Shown here: one piece after another, positions 7,773 to 60,190 of the stretch
Numbering within the stretch: position 1 is the stretch's first letter
How the letters are laid out: the number at the start of each line of letters is the position of its first letter
Origin: Octopus vulgaris
Lineage: Eukaryota
Direction of reading: 5' to 3'
Assembly (NCBI GenBank): GCA_951406725.2
Contig: OX597816.1
Span: 57,040,001 to 57,104,000, forward strand
Length of the DNA: 64,000 bases
The notes under the pieces: model-generated
Databases searched by the model: none
Seen by the model: the letters and a program-made list of their open reading frames with translations, nothing else
Told to the model about the DNA's origin: nothing
Position numbers and translations under genes: made by a program

Positions 7773-8001
7773 TAACAGATGTATAATATATATATACATA
7801 TATATATATATATATTATATATAAGGGCTTAGTAAAATAAATTACTTTGCCACATACTGAACTCATTAGAAATAGCAGCTAAAGAAATTTCTTTAGCTAT
7901 TTCTAATACTTAAAGAAAATCTCTCTCAGATAGTGTTTGCTCAAACCAACTCACACAGGTATGGGGGAAAAAACATTAAAAAATCAAGTGCAAAGGTTAT
8001 T

Positions 8002-8053
8002 TGAGAACGTACGTTTCTAGATTAGTCAAATCGACATTTCTTTCGTCAGCTCA
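8002..8053 (-). ncRNA. Type I hammerhead ribozyme motif (family 1, copy 1)
   Basis: Minus: tgag CTGACGA aagaaatgtcgatttgactaatcta GAAA cgtacg TT ctca; helix I tgag/ctca, palindromic helix III. Confidence 0.8.
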
Positions 8054-8557
8054 GAACTCCTTGATTCGGATTTGGGAACACTGAAAGTGGGAGCATATCC
8101 TTTTGGCTTCTTATCACCTCTAGATTTCCGCTCGAACTAAAAGTGCTATCAAATTCGAAATATGCAAGCGAAGAATTTCTGCTCTCCCTTTCCACCAGCG
8201 TGGGTTAAAATTGACAAACACTATGTTTTATCGGTGAAAACCGACGCATTAAACAGAGAGAAATGAATTATAATTTCAACAATTGAGGGTAAAATTAATT
8301 AATTATTAATCAATTTCACCAAGTATTCAGTATGTAAAGGGACCATTTTAGGCGAATTCAAAATATTACATTATATATAAGGGCTTAGTAAAATAAATTA
8401 CTTTGCCACATACTGAACTCATTAGAAATAGCAGCTAAAGAAATTTCTTTAGCTATTTCTAATACTTAAAGAAAATCTCTCTCAGATAGTGTTTGCTCAA
8501 ACCAACTCACACAGGTATGGGGGAAAAAACATTAAAAAATCAAGTGCAAAGGTTATT

Positions 8558-8609
8558 TGAGAACGTACGTTTCTAGATTAGTCAAATCGACATTTCTTTC
8601 GTCAGCTCA
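8558..8609 (-). ncRNA. Type I hammerhead ribozyme motif (family 1, copy 2)
   Basis: Same sequence as 8002-8053, 556 nt further on. Confidence 0.8.
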
Positions 8610-9113
8610 GAACTCCTTGATTCGGATTTGGGAACACTGAAAGTGGGAGCATATCCTTTTGGCTTCTTATCACCTCTAGATTTCCGCTCGAACTAAAAGT
8701 GCTATCAAATTCGAAATATGCAAGCGAAGAATTTCTGCTCTCCCCTTTCCACCAGCGTGGGTTAAAATTGACAAACACTATGTTTTATCGGTGAAAACCG
8801 ACGCATTAAACAGAGAGAAATGAATTATAATTTCAACAATTGAGGGTAAAATTAATTAATTATTAATCAATTTCACCAAGTATTCAGTATGTAAAGGGAC
8901 CATTTTAGGCGAATTCAAAATATTACATTATATATAAGGGCTTAGTAAAATAAATTACTTTGCCACATACTGAACTCATTAGAAATAGCAGCTAAAGAAA
9001 TTTCTTTAGCTATTTCTAATACTTAAAGAAAATCTCTCTCAGATAGTGTTTGCTCAAACCAACTCACACAGGTATGGGGAAAAAACATTAAAAAATCAAG
9101 TGCAAAGGTTATT

Positions 9114-9165
9114 TGAGAACGTACGTTTCTAGATTAGTCAAATCGACATTTCTTTCGTCAGCTCA
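9114..9165 (-). ncRNA. Type I hammerhead ribozyme motif (family 1, copy 3)
   Basis: Same sequence, third monomer. Confidence 0.8.
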
Positions 9166-9369
9166 GAACTCCTTGATTCGGATTTGGGAACACTGAAAGT
9201 GGGAACATATCCTTTTGGCTTCTTATCACCTCTCGAATCACCTCTCGAATCACCTTATCACCACTCGAATTTGATAGCACTTTTAGTTCGAGCGGAAATC
9301 TAGAGGTGATAAGAAGCCAAAAGGATATACTCCCACTTTCAGTGTTCCCAAATCCGAATCAAGGAGTTC

Positions 9370-9421
9370 TGAGCTGACGAAAGAAATGTCGATTTGACTA
9401 ATCTAGAAACGTACGTTCTCA
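9370..9421 (+). ncRNA. Type I hammerhead ribozyme motif (family 1, inverted arm)
   Basis: tgag CTGACGA...GAAA cgtacg TT ctca read directly on the plus strand. Confidence 0.8.
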
Positions 9422-10193
9422 AATAACCTTTGCACTTGATTTTTTAATGTTTTTTCCCCCATACCTGTGTGAGTTGGTTTGAGCAAACACTATCTGAGAG
9501 AGATTTTCTTTAAGTATTAGAAATAGCTAAAGAAATTTCTTTAGCTGCTATTTCTAATGAGTTCAGTATGTGGCAAAGTAATTTATTTTACTAAGCCCTT
9601 ATATATAATGTAATATTTTGAATTCGCCTAAAATGGTCCCTTTACATACTGAATACTTGGTGAAATTGATTAATAATTAATTAATTTTACCCTCAATTGT
9701 TGAAAATATATATATATATATATATATATATCAAAATAAGGATTCAAATAGAATCACGTACTTGAAAAGATATGGAGGGTTGGATAAATCTGTGGTTCTA
9801 GCCTATGGTTGGTAAGTATTAAATTGGATATTCCGGTTGTTTACTCAGAGAAAACCAAAGCTTTATGAGTATTTAGCGCCTAAGGGGCTGGTCCAAATCA
9901 CGTGTCACGTTGCACGTGTTACATTGTACGTTGTTGGTATACTCTAGGGTGTCCGACAAGTCGTATATCCCCTTGGTGTATTATAATCAAATGAAGAATA
10001 ACAAGCGATGGATAATTGTCGGCTCATTACAGCTAGAAGAATGAGAGCATTTCTTCATTACAGAGAACTGTAATCATCAAATGAAACGTAATTTAACAAA
10101 TAAAAGAATATCCCAAGAATATGGCAGGGACGCGACTGGAAGAAACAGCTGTAATGAGCTGATATTTATCCGTCGTCTGTTATTATTCATTTG

Positions 10194-12238: not shown

Positions 12239-13345
12239 TAGTAAAAGACAGCCTAAAAACTTGAAAACATTACTAACAAAGGCAAAATTTGACCTTAGCA
12301 ACAAAGACCAAACATTCACTGTATCTAAATGCAATGATAGCCGTTGTGGCACATGCGAATTCATACATACCGGCCAATATATAAACACAAAAACCGGGAA
12401 AATATTCACAAACGCGAATATGAACTGCACTGCATCAAATGCCCAAATTGTGAAGAAATATATGTAGGTCAGACGGGAAATGCACTATCAGAACGCTCAC
12501 GTGTACACCGACAACAGATTAGAGACCCAGAGGTCCGTCAGATACCTTTGAGTAACCATCTAGCAACATGTGGTCGGAAAATATATATAATATTTCCATT
12601 CTACAAATTACACAAGTGAAATCGAGAGGAAAATCAGAGAAAAGAATTTTATTGATAAATTCGAACCAAAGCTAAATAAGCAATAATAATAATACTTAGA
12701 GGTGCTACTTCTACTGCTACGACCATGACCACTAACAACAACAAAAACAATACTAAAGGTGATCAAGATGAAGATAGCAGGAAAATTATCTTATTTAGGC
12801 TTAAAAGTTCTATTGCCACCACCATCACCACTAGCAACAATAATTAAGGTGCTGACAATGATGATGATGACAATTGAAATATAAAAATCCCTGACCAAGG
12901 CTATTTACTAATTTCTAAAAATAGCCCAACAATTGCTGCCTCGGCCAGGGTTAAGATACAGGACTCTTGACATGTTCAAAAAAGCTTGACGCCTAAACCA
13001 ACCAATCAGCTTAAGTAATTGAGTGATGCTACACACTGATTGGTCAGAATACAGTTTGCAAAACCTAGTAATCTGGAGCCCACACAAGTGTATTTAAGGC
13101 ACATCTTAACCATCTCGGTACAGTCAAAAATTGTGAAGCATGGCTGTCACCACTACTACATGAACCTGAAGATTGCAGAATTTAATGCATGAAAGTACTA
13201 GTTCAATCAGAATGAACATTTAACATTCTACTATTTTATTTTATCCTATTATTTTATCGTATATTATATTATAAGATTGTAAATAAAACGTGAAAATCAG
13301 ACAAGGTTGGAATTCCTTTTATTAATATATTCTTCTATACACAAT
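12239..13345 (+). mobile_element. Penelope-like element 3' part: Zn-finger + GIY-YIG endonuclease remnant and pseudo-LTR
   Basis: KRQPKNLKTLLTKAKF...KCNDSRCGTCEFI (frameshift) CIKCPNCEEIYVGQTGNALSERSRVHRQQIR...IDKFEPKLN, followed by a non-coding tail with an HHR and AATAAA. Confidence 0.9.
13161..13205 (+). ncRNA. Minimal type I hammerhead ribozyme in the PLE pLTR
   Basis: tgaac CTGAAGA ttgca gaatttaa tgcat GAAA gtac TA gttca; 5-bp helix I, tgca/tgca helix II, palindromic agtact. Confidence 0.88.
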
Positions 13346-13354
13346 CACACACAC

Positions 13355-13410
<56 letters not shown>

Positions 13411-13413
<3 letters not shown>

Positions 13414-14421
13414 AGTTAGTTAGTTAGTTAATTTGGCTCAAAAGCAAATACCAAGGCCATGTAGGGGGACATGGAGTTAAGTACAGGGTGGTGTTCATGT
13501 AAAGAGTTCAGGCCACTTGAGGTCCAAGGAGGCTTTGAACAAAGCGGTCGTCGGCATCTTCACCATCTCGTCTGGCAGCTTGTTCCACGGATCCGCAACC
13601 CGGACGGTGAAAGCTCCTCTCCTTCGATTGAGATGAAATCGTCGCAGGTAGAGCTTTTCGGAATGACCCCGCAGCCGACGCTCCGGAGCAGGAGTGAAGA
13701 ACAGCTCTTTCGAGAGGTTACATTTCCCGCTTATGATGTTGTGGGCGAGAATGAGATCACCACGGCGGCGGCGTTTTTCAAGTGAATAAAGGTCGAGCGT
13801 CCTCAGCCTTTCTTCGTAGGACAAATTTTTGAGACCATGAACCATGCGGGTAGCCAGCCTCTGGACTCTTTCGGGATGCTGTATGTCTTTGAGGAGATAA
13901 GGAGAAGAGGCTTGAATCCCATACTCCAATATGGGTCTCACCAGCGTGACATAGAGTGGTAGGAATATGGCTGCTGTGAGCATTCCGAATGACCGTCGAA
14001 TCAAAAACAGAATTCCGCGCGCTTTGTTAGCAGCATGGACGCACTGGGCCGAAGGCGAAAAGGAGGAATCCACCAAGATACCCAGGTCCTTTACCTGATC
14101 GGTCCTCTCCAGCAGCAGACGACCCGGCTCGAAATCAAGTTGAGTTGCAGGAGTAGAGCCGACAGGCAGATGACAGCACTTTGACACGTTCAGACACAGG
14201 TCCCAATCGTTAGACCACTTCCAAATTTGGTGGAGGCATCGATGAAGATCCTCTATACTACCGCGAGGAGCGACCAGTTTGATATCGTCGGCAAATAGAA
14301 GGGTGTGTTGCGTGAGGTCGTCGGGCAAGTCATTTATGAAGACTAAGAACAACAATGGCCCAAGCACTGAACCTTGAGGCACGCCACTGCTCGCACTGGA
14401 GACGTCGGACCGCGAACCATT
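13411..14421 (-). mobile_element. 5'-truncated CR1/L2-group LINE with an open RT C-terminal frame and (TAAC)n tail
   Basis: 295-aa ORF 13495-14382 with PQGSVLGPLLFLVFINDL, LFADD, VRPILEY, RRRGDLI, LRGH; short 3' UTR ending at the gttagttag tract 13411-13430. Confidence 0.93.
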
Positions 14422-14677
14422 AACTTGAACTTGGAGTATATATATACACGCACATATATATACATATGTACATATACGTATATGTAATTATATAATATAG
14501 ATATACATATACGTGTACGTACGTACGTACATACATACATACACACATACATGCATACATACATACATACATACATACATACATACATACATACATACAT
14601 ACATACATACATGCATGCATGCATACATACATACATACATACATACATACATACATACATACATACATACATACATA

Positions 14678-18133: not shown

Positions 18134-19104
18134 TACAGAAGCACAATTAAAGGTTACGAACGCTACATATCTGGAATCTTTAAATTAAATTTTGTCCAGT
18201 AGTTCTTTATCTTTATTAGTCTAGCTCAATAATAAATTTTTAAGGGGTGAAAGGTAATATAAGTCTTTACTCATTTATTTATTTTTCTCTCTCTATTTTC
18301 ACTCTTTACTCTATTTTGATTTATTTATTTTACTTTATTCTTGTTTTTATTTTATAATTTTAATGTACCCTAACATTAAGTTAATATAGTTATTAGTCTT
18401 TTCACCCTTTCGATATTTATAATAAGTAATAGATTGCCTGAATTTTCCTCCACTTTAATTAAATATTAATAACTATATACACTTGAATTAAACCCTACAT
18501 GCTAATTTTATATTGATTTAATAAGGATAGACATAATAGCACAATATGACCTTTTTACCAATTGTATCTACTTCAGCTTTCTTATACCTAACACCCCAGA
18601 TGAATATATTGTTATATTCTTACTTTACAACTCCAGTATACACAACCTTACTCCCCTTCTATGGTCTCTACCATTTCTTACACTCTGTTCTGTATGTCTA
18701 AATCTTATCAGTTAATGCCTTGCAGCCGTTTACTCAACATGCAGAAATTGAACACCTATTTTGTATATCTTTACCTCTCAAGAGATTCGACTTTCAAATA
18801 ACTTTTAATTTAGTTAATTAATTTTCTGAAGATCTGGAATTGAAACAGCTGTAAGGGATCTTAGTCAGTTTTTTAATTACTAAATAAGAATTTATTAATT
18901 ACCTCTCTATTTTCTCATCTTATTATATATATATATACACACATACATACGTGCATATAAATATATACATACATATATACTTACGAGCATATATATATAT
19001 ATAATATTAATTAGAGACAAAACCACTATTTTGCAAATCAAACAAAGAAAGACTTAATCCAACACATAAAAAAATTTAATATAAATTAAATAAAATTAAA
19101 TTCG

Positions 19105-19150
19105 CCACTACAATTGTTTCGTGTCTCTTCAAAGGACATTCATCAGGTGG
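19105..19150 (-). ncRNA. Type I hammerhead ribozyme motif (left arm)
   Basis: Reverse complement of 19187-19232. Confidence 0.85.
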
Positions 19151-19186
19151 ATTTCAGATCTTAAAATTGAATAGAAGATCTGAAAT

Positions 19187-19232
19187 CCACCTGATGAATG
19201 TCCTTTGAAGAGACACGAAACAATTGTAGTGG
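19187..19232 (+). ncRNA. Type I hammerhead ribozyme motif (right arm)
   Basis: ccac CTGATGA atgtc ctttgaaga gacac GAAA caattg TA gtgg; canonical core, GUA site. Confidence 0.87.
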
Positions 19233-19421
19233 CGAATTTAATTTTATTTAATTTATATTAAATTTTTTTATGTATTGGATTAAGTCTTTCTTTGTTTGAT
19301 TTGCAAAATAGTGGTTTTGTCTCTAATTAATATTATATAATATTTTACTATAAAATTGGATTCAATCCTAAATCTGATTTTTCCCTGTAAATTTGGATTT
19401 ATTCCCTAATATTTATTATTA

Positions 19422-21848: not shown

Positions 21849-22575
21849 ACATGCACTTACATATATTTGTTATATGGCAATTGGTGAACATTAACACTGT
21901 CAATTACTGCCTCACGATGGCTCATCTAATGGTTTTTATGCTTTTATGACAAGATCGATCGAACCTGCATCTACATGTCGGCAAAACAAACTTGCTAACC
22001 ACTCAGCCACTGCGAGAAAGGAAAGTTTTTTACAATTACTACAACAAACTAATCATGTCTTCAACTTGTCACTTAAAATATCAGCTGTTTATATCATCTT
22101 GTATAACTTAGCTGAAAGTTTCTAACCGTGGCCATAACCCAGTAACCTCCTCCTCCTGATCACCAACACCACCCATGCTACTAACCTCCTCCTCCTCCTC
22201 CTCCTCATCATCATCATCATCAACACTATCGTATTCCAATCCCAAATTTTTTGATAAATGATTTATTAATAACCCAATTTGTGTCCTAAAATGGATATGA
22301 TCCTCATTTTTCAAACTTACACCCGTACTTACAGATATATATATATAATTAATCAATATAGGGTGGCAAAAAAAATTTTGTAGAATTCTTTTGCCACCAG
22401 CGGCCTAGTAGGAAAAAATTAAATAGTCATAGACCATTTTTAAGTTTAACATCAACAATCAAGGAACGGCCATAATAGGCCATTCACCCACTAGAAATAA
22501 CAGCCAAAGCTTCAACCGCAAATAAAAGTTAATTCTGTAAACCAGGAGAAAATTTAAAAAAACATTTACCCTGTA

Positions 22576-22682
22576 ATTTCTTATACGATATACCGTTTCA
22601 TCTGCTGATTAATGGTAAACTAACCTGATTAAATTAAATCAAGCCAATCTTCCACAGGCCCTCAGATTCTTCAGTAAGAAAT
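22576..22682 (-). ncRNA. Type I hammerhead ribozyme motif (family 2, copy 1)
   Basis: Reverse complement of 23444-23550. Confidence 0.88.
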
Positions 22683-23066
22683 AGCCCAAGTCGGAGCAGA
22701 TATTTTCACGAGGCATTTCCGACCTTGCCAAGTTTATATCTGACCTAAAATTTTCAAATCGTCGCACTCGCGCCAAATTTATCGGCAGCAAATAAATATA
22801 AGCCGTCGATTCCATTACGGAATTAACCAGAAAATTCATAATTAATCAATATAGGGTGCCAAAAAAAATTTTGTAGAATTCTTTTGCCACCAGCGGCCTA
22901 GTAGGAAAAAATTAAATAGTCATAGACCATTTTTAAGTTTAACATCAACAATCAAGGAACGGCCATAATAGGCCATTCACCCACTAGAAATAACAGCCAA
23001 AGCTTCAACCGCAAATAAAAGTTAATTCTGTAAACCAGGAGAAAATTTAAAAACATTTACCCTGTA

Positions 23067-23173
23067 ATTTCTTATACGATATACCGTTTCATCTGCTGAT
23101 TAATGGTAAACTAACCTGATTAAATTAAATCAAGCCAATCTTCCACAGGCCCTCAGATTCTTCAGTAAGAAAT
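23067..23173 (-). ncRNA. Type I hammerhead ribozyme motif (family 2, copy 2)
   Basis: Reverse complement of 23444-23550. Confidence 0.88.
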
Positions 23174-23443
23174 AGCCCAAGTCGGAGCAGATATTTTCAC
23201 GAGGCATTTCCGACCTTTTTCCTACTAGGCCGCTGGTGGCAAAAGAATTCTACAAAATTTTTTTTGGCACCCTATATTGATTAATTATGAATTTTCTGGT
23301 TAATTCCGTAATGGAATCGACGGCTTATATTTATTTGCTGCCGATAAATTTGGCGCGAGTGCGACGATTTGAAAATTTTAGGTCAGATATAAACTTGGCA
23401 AGGTCGGAAATGCCTCGTGAAAATATCTGCTCCGACTTGGGCT

Positions 23444-23550
23444 ATTTCTTACTGAAGAATCTGAGGGCCTGTGGAAGATTGGCTTGATTTAATTTAATCA
23501 GGTTAGTTTACCATTAATCAGCAGATGAAACGGTATATCGTATAAGAAAT
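23444..23550 (+). ncRNA. Type I hammerhead ribozyme with long helix II insertion (family 2, inverted arm)
   Basis: atttctta CTGAAGA atctg [~58 nt] cagat GAAA cggtatatcg TA taagaaat; 8-bp helix I, 5-bp helix II base, GUA site. Confidence 0.9.
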
Positions 23551-24202
23551 TACAGGGTAAATGTTTTTTAAATTTTCTCCTGGTTTACAGAATTAACTTT
23601 TATTTGCGGTTGAAGCTTTGGCTGTTATTTCTAGTGGGTGAATGGCCTATTATGGCCGTTCCTTGATTGTTGATATATATATATATATATATATATGTGT
23701 GCATGTATATATGTATATAATATGCATGTATATACATACATGCATGTATGTATATACATACATTCATATGTATGTATATATATATACATACATGCATACA
23801 CCAATGCAAGCACATTTACCCATATACATACAAGCATATACATGTGTGTATGTGCACGTGTGTGTGCGTCTGTGGATGGGTGTATATAATGCGTATGTTT
23901 ATACTTTGAATAACAGTCTGAAGTTTTTCAATAAAATACCACTATATTCTACACTTGATTTGGGAGCGCTATACTCTCCACCACCTTTTGCAGGTATGTG
24001 CTCGGATATGTATAATATAAACACACACGCACACGCACATTAATTAATTAATTCGCAATTAATGTGGAGTCATGTTTAAATATCCTCTCACTAGCCTGCG
24101 TTCAATCGCATGTATTTAAAGGGTTTTTTGGTAGCTTCGTAATGTTTGGGTATTAATCCAGTATGCAGGATATAAGTCTTGTCTTGATTTCCTTCCTTAA
24201 AA

Positions 24203-26751: not shown

Positions 26752-26755
26752 TATA

Positions 26756-27034
26756 TACTGTTGTGTCTGGGGAGAATCATTTTCTTTTTGTGCCTTTTTA
26801 TTTAACACACTCACCGGTAAAATTTCCACTTTTTTCTTACTTTTATTGTCCTAAAATTTTCGTTGCGTCTTGCAACCTTTTCAATGGTTTTAGAGACTCA
26901 AAACTATTGAAAAAGTTTGCAAGACGCAACGAAAATTTTAGGACAATAAAAATAGGAAAAAAGTGAAAATTTTACCGGTGAGTGTGTTAAATAATAAGGC
27001 ACAAAAAGAGAATGACACTCCCCAGACACAACAG
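26756..27034. mobile_element. Fold-back / MITE-like palindrome
   Basis: ctgttgtgtctgggga...ttttcaatggtttt and aaaactattgaaaa...tcccagacacaacag are ~135-bp imperfect inverted arms around a short spacer. Confidence 0.8.
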
Positions 27035-27097
27035 AATATGCTTCAACACACGAACTCATATAAATAATTTTGCAAAACAAATCCAAAGACGAAATAT

Positions 27098-59549: not shown

Positions 59550-60190
59550 TAGGAAGAGAAAAAGTATCTGGTTCAATCTCTCGTTCAACCTTGAAGTTTC
59601 TACCAACGTTGCTAGGAACTTCCTGTAGTTAATTAAGAAGCATTTCCCTAGAGGCTATAAGTATAACAAGTTCTTTAACCCTCACAATGTCAAGGTGACC
59701 TACGCCTGCTTAGACAACATCGCAGCTAATATTGCACGCATCAACAGACGCAAAAATGCACACACACAACTACCAACCTGCAACTTCCGAAACCCTACCA
59801 TCTGCCCTCAAGGAGGATCCTGCCTCTCTAGGACGATAGTCTACAGAGCAACACTCATACTATCCAATGGCACCACTAAGGACTATATGGGTATGACAGC
59901 CAATGAATTCAAGGGAAGATACTCACATCACATGCACTCACTCAGATGCAGGGACAGAAAGAACTCTACTTCCTTGTCTTGCTTTCTCTGGAGACTCCGT
60001 GACCTCCGAAACGAACCACCTAGCATCAAGTGCACTATCATCGACAGGGTGCCATCACATTTACCCGGCGCCTATAATTACTAGTTCTGCTTCCGTGAAA
60101 GACTGCATATCCCCCACCAACTCACATTATCCATCAACAGGAAATATGGTCAGTTCTATTACTGTCACCCTTCTGGCAAATTTCAAGCAA
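59550..60190 (+). mobile_element. Penelope-like element fragment (linker + GIY-YIG), degenerate
   Basis: RKRKSIWFNLSFNLEVSTNVARNFL*LIKKHFP...VKVTYACLDNI...ICPQGGSCLSRTIVYRATL...YMGMTANEFKGRYSHH...STSLS. Confidence 0.88.

Follow-up and report, generated by a model that had tools for sequence, protein, structure and literature searches.

Among described systems, two come close to the repeat reported here. Animal non-LTR retrozymes, according to the available text of two accounts (Cervera & de la Pena 2020, PMC7229834; Li, Clavereau & Pollet 2026, 10.64898/2026.07.22.740005), are non-coding tandem repeats of low GC content that carry one type I hammerhead per unit, have structured RNA and co-occur with Penelope-like elements (PLEs). 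Endonuclease-bearing (EN+) PLEs, in the part of the source available, form partial tandems with an adjacent inverted, 5'-truncated copy, a tail of 30-40 bp on one side only and a bias toward (TA)n (Craig et al. 2021, PMC8557442). A PLE protein studied in vitro, that of Anolis Poseidon PAc, cuts AT-rich DNA on both strands and extends each of them, and the distance between its two internal start sites corresponds to the tail (Frangieh et al. 2024, PMC11167929). From the same partial texts, hammerhead cleavage was dispensable for insertion of the anole PLE in vitro (PMC11167929), and 8 of 9 Xenopus retrozyme dimers were without cleavage in vitro (10.64898/2026.07.22.740005); both observations count against the ribozyme step of the cycle proposed below.

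We analyzed a 64-kb stretch of octopus DNA (hereafter, the window), which lies on contig C3 of a genome assembly of 2.8 Gb and 227 contigs in which TA microsatellites are abundant. The element at 22345-23674 is an animal non-LTR retrozyme that bears the insertion footprint of a PLE; both this class and its connection with PLEs have already been published in the sources above (PMC7229834; 10.64898/2026.07.22.740005). It shares the retrozyme traits just listed, with a GC content of 35%, and its unit is slightly above the 150-450 bp of the first account and within the 51-972 bp of the second. It differs from animal retrozymes as described there in a 58-nt insert in helix II, in that no pLTR homologue was found and in being known here from sequence alone. 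With EN+ PLEs of the Hydra and Neptune clades it shares partial tandems, an inverted 5'-truncated arm, a one-sided tail, (TA)n and a type I hammerhead, whereas it has no ORF, its hammerhead is full-size rather than minimal, and its tail is 106 nt instead of the published 30-40 bp, which counts against a PLE reading (PMC8557442, as far as available). The PAc reaction is alike in its AT-rich DNA, in the cutting and extension of both strands and in two internal start sites that set the tail. Non-autonomous PLEs of Chlamys such as MRC1 likewise form multicopy head-to-tail insertions but, unlike the octopus unit, have 3' ends similar to those of their autonomous partners and, in the text available, mostly lack canonical hammerheads (PMC8557442).

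Two features of the octopus family, a stereotyped two-armed insertion and a pile-up of 5' ends at the predicted cut, are absent from the retrozyme accounts as available (the word "inverted" occurs 0 times in that text of PMC7229834). Our literature searches turned up neither a cephalopod retrozyme nor an account of 5' ends located at the cut, and a term search of the main text of an octopus repeat paper (PMC13282606), in the form available, found neither "ribozyme" nor "retrozyme"; repeat libraries may contain the family.

Architecture of the element and its hammerheads

Self-blast and a pattern scan resolved the element into a 491-493-nt unit, repeated 1.8 times on the minus strand and accompanied by an inverted arm, and located three type I hammerheads. 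This agrees with the preliminary description, which had proposed a ~492-bp monomer in 1.8 copies with an inverted arm. The features are as follows.

22345..23217, minus strand: long-end arm, a 5'-truncated unit 112-493 (23217-22838) and then a full unit 1-493 (22837-22345); its 3' end, at unit 493, abuts (TA)n
23216..23674, plus strand: short-end (inverted) arm, unit 421-493 and then 1-387; its 3' end, at unit 387, abuts (TA)n
23216..23217, unstranded: head-to-head inversion junction, a 2-nt overlap of both arms (gap -2)
23444..23550, plus strand: type I hammerhead, predicted cut after 23542
23067..23173, minus strand: second type I hammerhead, of identical sequence, with the cut predicted between 23075 and 23074
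22576..22682, minus strand: third type I hammerhead, likewise identical, with the cut predicted between 22584 and 22583
22584..23074, minus strand: predicted 491-nt RNA from double cleavage, modelled as structured
22345..22450, minus strand: "tail" of 106 nt (unit 388-493) that separates the fixed 3' ends and terminates only one of the two arms
23618..23633, plus strand: TTRGCTGYTATTTCTA, a short motif situated about 40 nt ahead of the short end and a candidate enzyme-recognition element
22335..22347, unstranded: left half of the (TA)n target
23673..23696, unstranded: right half of the (TA)n target

The stretch 22345-22726 matched 22838-23217 at 99.2% identity, and 23216-23674 matched the reverse complement of 22451-22910 at 99.8%. 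From cut to cut the unit measures 491 nt, and the repeat unit in the outer copy 493 nt. The differences in homopolymer length between copies that had been noted earlier were seen again, together with one substitution, at unit position 472. The longest frame of the unit has 68 codons; no ORF of at least 130 aa occurs inside 22345-23674 or on the unit, and thus neither carries the reverse transcriptase (RT) and GIY-YIG ORF of an autonomous EN+ PLE.

The pattern scan covered both strands of the window and gave three hammerhead matches, all inside the element and at the coordinates first described, with the same 8-bp helix I and the same helix II (5 bp). CUGAAGA lies at 23452 on the plus strand with GUA ending at 23542; the corresponding minus-strand pairs are 23165/23075 and 22674/22584. 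Helix II bears the 58-nt insert, which includes a 14-bp hairpin, and precedes GAAA; the short helix III ends in a palindromic UAUA loop. An Rfam search of the element region returned no hammerhead family at E<=10, probably because of the long insert. In the Rfam search of the whole window, the miRNA matches were simple repeats or palindromes below the gathering score (among the 150 of 224 matches listed). In folding models, the active hammerhead fold lies 1.8 kcal/mol above the minimum-energy fold, and helix III alone would be marginal (-0.5), whereas two copies are predicted to pair through the palindromic loop at -14.2 kcal/mol. Amphibian ribozymes that act as dimers likewise have a short helix III and a palindromic loop, according to the available part of PMC7229834.

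Variation among copies bears on whether the motif is maintained. Across 71 loci, represented by one haplotype each, the 13 core positions showed 2 deviations in 923 cells, compared with a mean minor frequency of 3.4% outside the core; none of the 13 was polymorphic, against 52 of 273 positions outside, a difference that alone is not decisive. The free core position, N7, carried A, T, C and G in 29, 23, 11 and 8 loci, respectively, and was the sole position with four alleles among unit positions 1-380. One helix II pair was GC in 54 loci and AT in 17, a change from G-C to A-U, and the loop palindrome was AT in 52, GC in 17 and AC in 2, so that UAUA became UGCA, still palindromic, in 17 loci; since these changes are at the subfamily level, they represent few independent compensatory events. 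On the opposing side, the first helix II pair was broken in 6 of 71 loci, and the non-core hammerhead positions were as variable as the remainder of the unit (16/94 vs 52/273). On balance, as far as copies can tell, the motif behaves like a hammerhead under selection.

Several other features of the window were observed. A sister element at 7806-9710 has a 557-nt unit, the same two-armed layout in (TA)n, a hammerhead-like motif and a short motif of the TTRGCTGYTATTTCTA type before its short end. Long near-perfect palindromes stand beside TA repeats at 18993-19343, which has sub-threshold miRNA matches in Rfam, and at 26753-27039; both are possibly short two-armed insertions of other families. 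On the minus strand, 13495-14487 contains a 330-aa frame that by eye resembles the C-terminal part of a LINE reverse transcriptase.

Copies, ends and targets across the genome

The hammerhead pattern had 1,573 exact matches genome-wide, and a control pattern had 0. A 397-nt query gave 917 first-look candidates, of which the best 40 were scored and proved mostly 99-100% identical. We mapped 88 loci: that in the window, 36 best hits of the 397-nt query, 10 from another search and 41 more from contig 1, the last taken in order from a pattern search up to ~170 Mb, with rows of the sister family left out. The best-hit loci are biased to long arms, and the contig-1 set (45 loci, four of them shared with the other set) requires an intact tail pattern.

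Head-to-head arms occurred at 72 of the 88 loci. Among the 74 arm pairs, 62 combined a long with a short end, 2 were short+short, 2 were long+long and 8 included another end. The long end falls at about unit 493 and the short end at about unit 387, and 139 of 148 arm ends abut (TA)n. From these pair statistics, both ends are fixed points of a single unit and are separated by 106 nt; the inversion point is variable. The footprint described for PLEs, comprising an inverted 5'-truncated arm, a partial tandem, a one-sided tail and a (TA)n target, is thus found in the family. An inverted arm had already been reported at the window locus, and it is present there; far from being a quirk of one locus, it follows a family-wide rule and a footprint that is published (PMC8557442, in the part available).

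Units of 491-493 nt are joined head-to-tail, with 1-10 per arm. Judged by frames and GC content, the family consists of non-coding tandem units of low GC, with a type I hammerhead in each and no LTR-type layout; identity and copy data from one genome assembly indicate dispersed, recently mobile copies. With homopolymers masked, units within arms differ by 0.39% (202 pairs) and units between loci by 3.5%; unit pairs from opposite arms differ by 0.78% (134 pairs), a value inflated by the double insertion L060. Thirty locus-private variants were fixed in all covering units. These data show that both arms of one insertion come from one haplotype, a test limited by the nearest other locus, whose distance (0.51%) is on a par with that among units inside one locus. 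The low within-locus divergence and the near-identity of the scored copies point to a young family, in line with the recent insertion proposed from the single locus. At L040, L060 and L172, insertions lie beside or inside other retrozyme-like insertions, and the leftover (TA)n at each end seems to have served as a new target.

Proposed cut and uncut templates

The two priming sites lie 133 and 239 nt downstream of the predicted cut, and a cut RNA would therefore yield short arms starting at about unit 255. We found that 42 of 161 terminal arms start within unit 255-290, where 8.1% of the bases at risk lie (binomial p 8e-12); this interval was chosen post hoc and is the most AT-rich of the unit (81%). 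Such starts were seen in 21 of 83 short arms, in 21 of 78 long arms and in 24 of 81 arms of the contig-1 subset. The best 36-nt window of the unit for 5' ends starts at 248-255, and counts in successive 12-nt bins are 3 and 5 before the cut and 15, 11, 16 and 3 after it; only 2 of 161 ends fall exactly at 255-256. Smaller clusters sit at other hairpins or T-runs, at 459-470 (9), 363-374 (8) and 303-314 (8). The pile-up suggests cleaved RNA templates, with RT stalling or AT-richness as a rival explanation. From the ends of the copies, it is likely that the RNA is cut in the cell, and self-cleavage is the predicted means. The available text on Anolis PAc differs here, reporting no reads that end at the hammerhead site (PMC11167929), whereas in octopus the 5' ends of arms accumulate a short way downstream of the cut that is predicted.

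The ends are also paired. Both arms stopped within 255-295 in 12 of 62 pairs and one arm in 9 (Fisher p 2.7e-6), and the 5' ends of the two arms lay no more than 35 nt apart in 23 of 62 pairs, compared with 10.8 after shuffling; outside the cut interval the figures were 10 of 39 and 4.7 (p 0.013). This fits either one RNA serving both arms or the fold-back of one cDNA.

The copy at 22345-23674 needs a circular or uncleaved multimeric template, as is supported by both of its arms running through the cleavage site between unit positions 254 and 255 (three passages here); arms at other loci cross this site seamlessly as well. A circular or concatemeric template had been proposed earlier from the junction gattaattat/gaattttctgg, where unit 493 meets unit 1. 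The need for such a template is upheld by passage through the cleavage site, whereas the cited junction is the fixed long 3' end, and crossing it is uninformative about a circle because it lies midway in an RNA that runs from cut to cut.

In the published retrozyme model, which was also the lead of the preliminary description, every multi-unit arm would arise when a monomeric circular RNA is reverse-transcribed in rolling-circle fashion. The units of one insertion are nearly clonal and have private variants in common, and the cut site is crossed without scars, as this model would have it; the unit is also predicted to fold well as a circle (z -4.6, 40 shuffles), and circular RNAs have been demonstrated for coral, mussel and axolotl retrozymes (PMC7229834, in the part available). 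In the contig-1 set, 20 of 69 first passes stopped at the cut compared with 4 of 47 later passes, as would be expected of a mixture of cut linear and uncuttable templates, but in the pooled loci later-pass stops (17/129) come close to first-pass stops (25/144). Against a monomer circle, moreover, the same substitution recurs in non-adjacent units, at a spacing of 3 in L171 and L200 and at spacings of 4 and 3 in L162; in L194 a substitution occupies an equal rank in the two arms, and L198 combines two subfamilies as a mosaic. The unlinked loci L031 and L033 have one common ordered pattern at position 386; we rejected their unit order as proof of one template, since position 391 differs. We therefore regard a monomer circle as an unlikely source of all multi-unit arms. 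Recurrences of this kind would be impossible from a monomer circle and, as read from the copies, show some templates to have been oligomers, although unequal exchange after insertion could be an alternative source of the recurring variants. Oligomeric templates, linear or circular, are the economical reading. Since the unit variants indicate oligomers among the templates, circularity is unproven, and a period of three is only a hint, given other recurrences at spacings of 1, 2 or 5.

Among the runs listed as containing the stretch, none is labelled RNA. The unit is covered by contigs from four runs whose RNA origin is a guess; strand, ends and circles are not readable from them, and the longest, at 472 nt, is shorter than the unit. 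The stretch itself is present in runs X1-X20, under six organism labels, and the contig comparison covered runs of two of these labels, A and B.

A probable Penelope-like partner and the proposed cycle

The family is a young non-coding hammerhead repeat that lies as two arms in TA microsatellites and is likely copied from RNA in trans by the RT and GIY-YIG endonuclease of a PLE. The genome holds candidates for the partner. An autonomous Hydra-type PLE leaves the same long and short two-armed footprint, with a 73-nt tail (L087, L088 and L092), carries a minimal hammerhead and is young; more than 40 open frames of 727 aa were found among 150 rows listed. These frames are assigned to the Hydra type from motifs alone, because RWK and DKT are present and CCHH is absent, and their linker reads CxF, not CxC. 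Frames of 781 aa from a Neptune-type PLE occurred in 16 of 148 rows listed. The searches of the genome for PLEs scored the best 150 of 14,640, 6,136 and 5,081 candidates.

Homology between these PLEs and the unit was sought in several ways. A blastn comparison of the unit with 40 PLE loci gave only separate small insertions or chance hits, local alignment of the unit to four PLE ends was shuffle-like (69-139 of 300 shuffles scored as high), and a motif and ORF scan of 16 further GIY-YIG loci returned no partner. No examined autonomous PLE was homologous to the unit, so none of them identifies the enzyme. The longer tail points weakly to a Hydra-type machinery. The TTRGCTGYTATTTCTA motif before the short end is common to sister non-coding families, and alignment of the 3' region to sister families picked by this motif was weak (2, 11, 25 and 72 of 300 shuffles as high).

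Other PLE-related sequences were seen along the way. In the window, 59629-60084 (plus strand) holds a 151-aa frame that resembles a Hydra-type GIY-YIG endonuclease and belongs to an old, mostly broken PLE family; a Pfam search returned nothing for this frame. The 781-aa Neptune-type family (L097:1768-5471, L094-L105) carries, upstream of and overlapping the RT frame, a separate frame that reaches 479 aa, and our scan found no canonical hammerhead at its 3' end. By eye, 13319-13360 of the window resembles the tail end of this family in L103.

The unit might instead be the pLTR of an unfound autonomous PLE, with truncated and tandem derivatives as its copies, the hammerhead as a passenger and the 5' pile-up as a product of RT stalling or AT-rich microhomology. 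PLE pLTRs do bear type I hammerheads and leave a footprint of this kind (PMC8557442), retrozymes of Xenopus share homology with pLTRs (10.64898/2026.07.22.740005; both sources as available), and the clustering of ends at other hairpins and T-runs is in keeping with stalling. Yet what comes after a full unit at the 88 loci is either the next unit or (TA)n, with no locus continuing into a fixed other sequence (flanks judged by eye); arrays reach 10 units, subfamilies ~10% apart retain the non-coding unit, and the core is nearly invariant while N7 is free; we find this account improbable. A DNA-level origin, as a MITE-like or fold-back element, by satellite amplification or as an assembly artefact, could draw on the inverted ends, on homopolymer differences that are perhaps read errors and on periodic variants that perhaps stem from unequal exchange after insertion, but it is most improbable in view of ends that are different fixed points of one unit, a variable inversion point, two 5'-truncated arms, the same structure on many contigs, and contigs of four independent runs (four studies) that contain the unit with both end types joined to TA repeats, which argues against an artefact at the family level.

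Under copying in trans by a PLE, the cycle would run as follows. Tandem arrays would be transcribed, and the hammerhead, probably aided by dimer formation through the palindromic loop III, would cut only part of the sites, leaving linear monomers and oligomers, some of them perhaps ligated to circles. The PLE enzyme would nick (TA)n on both strands, with priming at unit 387 and at unit 493; each cDNA would extend toward the 5' end, and the two cDNAs would be joined via a few bases of microhomology. Templates cut just upstream would give short two-armed copies without the ribozyme, whereas uncut or circular templates would give multi-unit arms, as at 22345-23674, able to seed the next round.

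More tentatively, and at somewhat less than even odds, the family may be a genomic record of the retrozyme cycle, in which cutting in vivo is incomplete and a single PLE complex primes one RNA at two sites 106 nt from each other; cut templates would end as dead short copies and oligomers (possibly a circular trimer) as fertile arrays, and several unrelated families would share one recognition motif for a non-homologous PLE partner. With the end statistics comes testable mechanistic detail that our literature searches did not turn up. The copying enzyme of animal retrozymes, the form of their RNA and the role of the hammerhead in PLE-type mobility are open in the literature, as far as its available text goes (PMC7229834, PMC8557442, PMC11167929, 10.64898/2026.07.22.740005). 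These questions of retrozyme mobility can be tested directly in the octopus family, which supplies exact priming sites and a defined target, shares its genome with candidate enzymes whose frames are intact, and shows a population signal where the cut is predicted.
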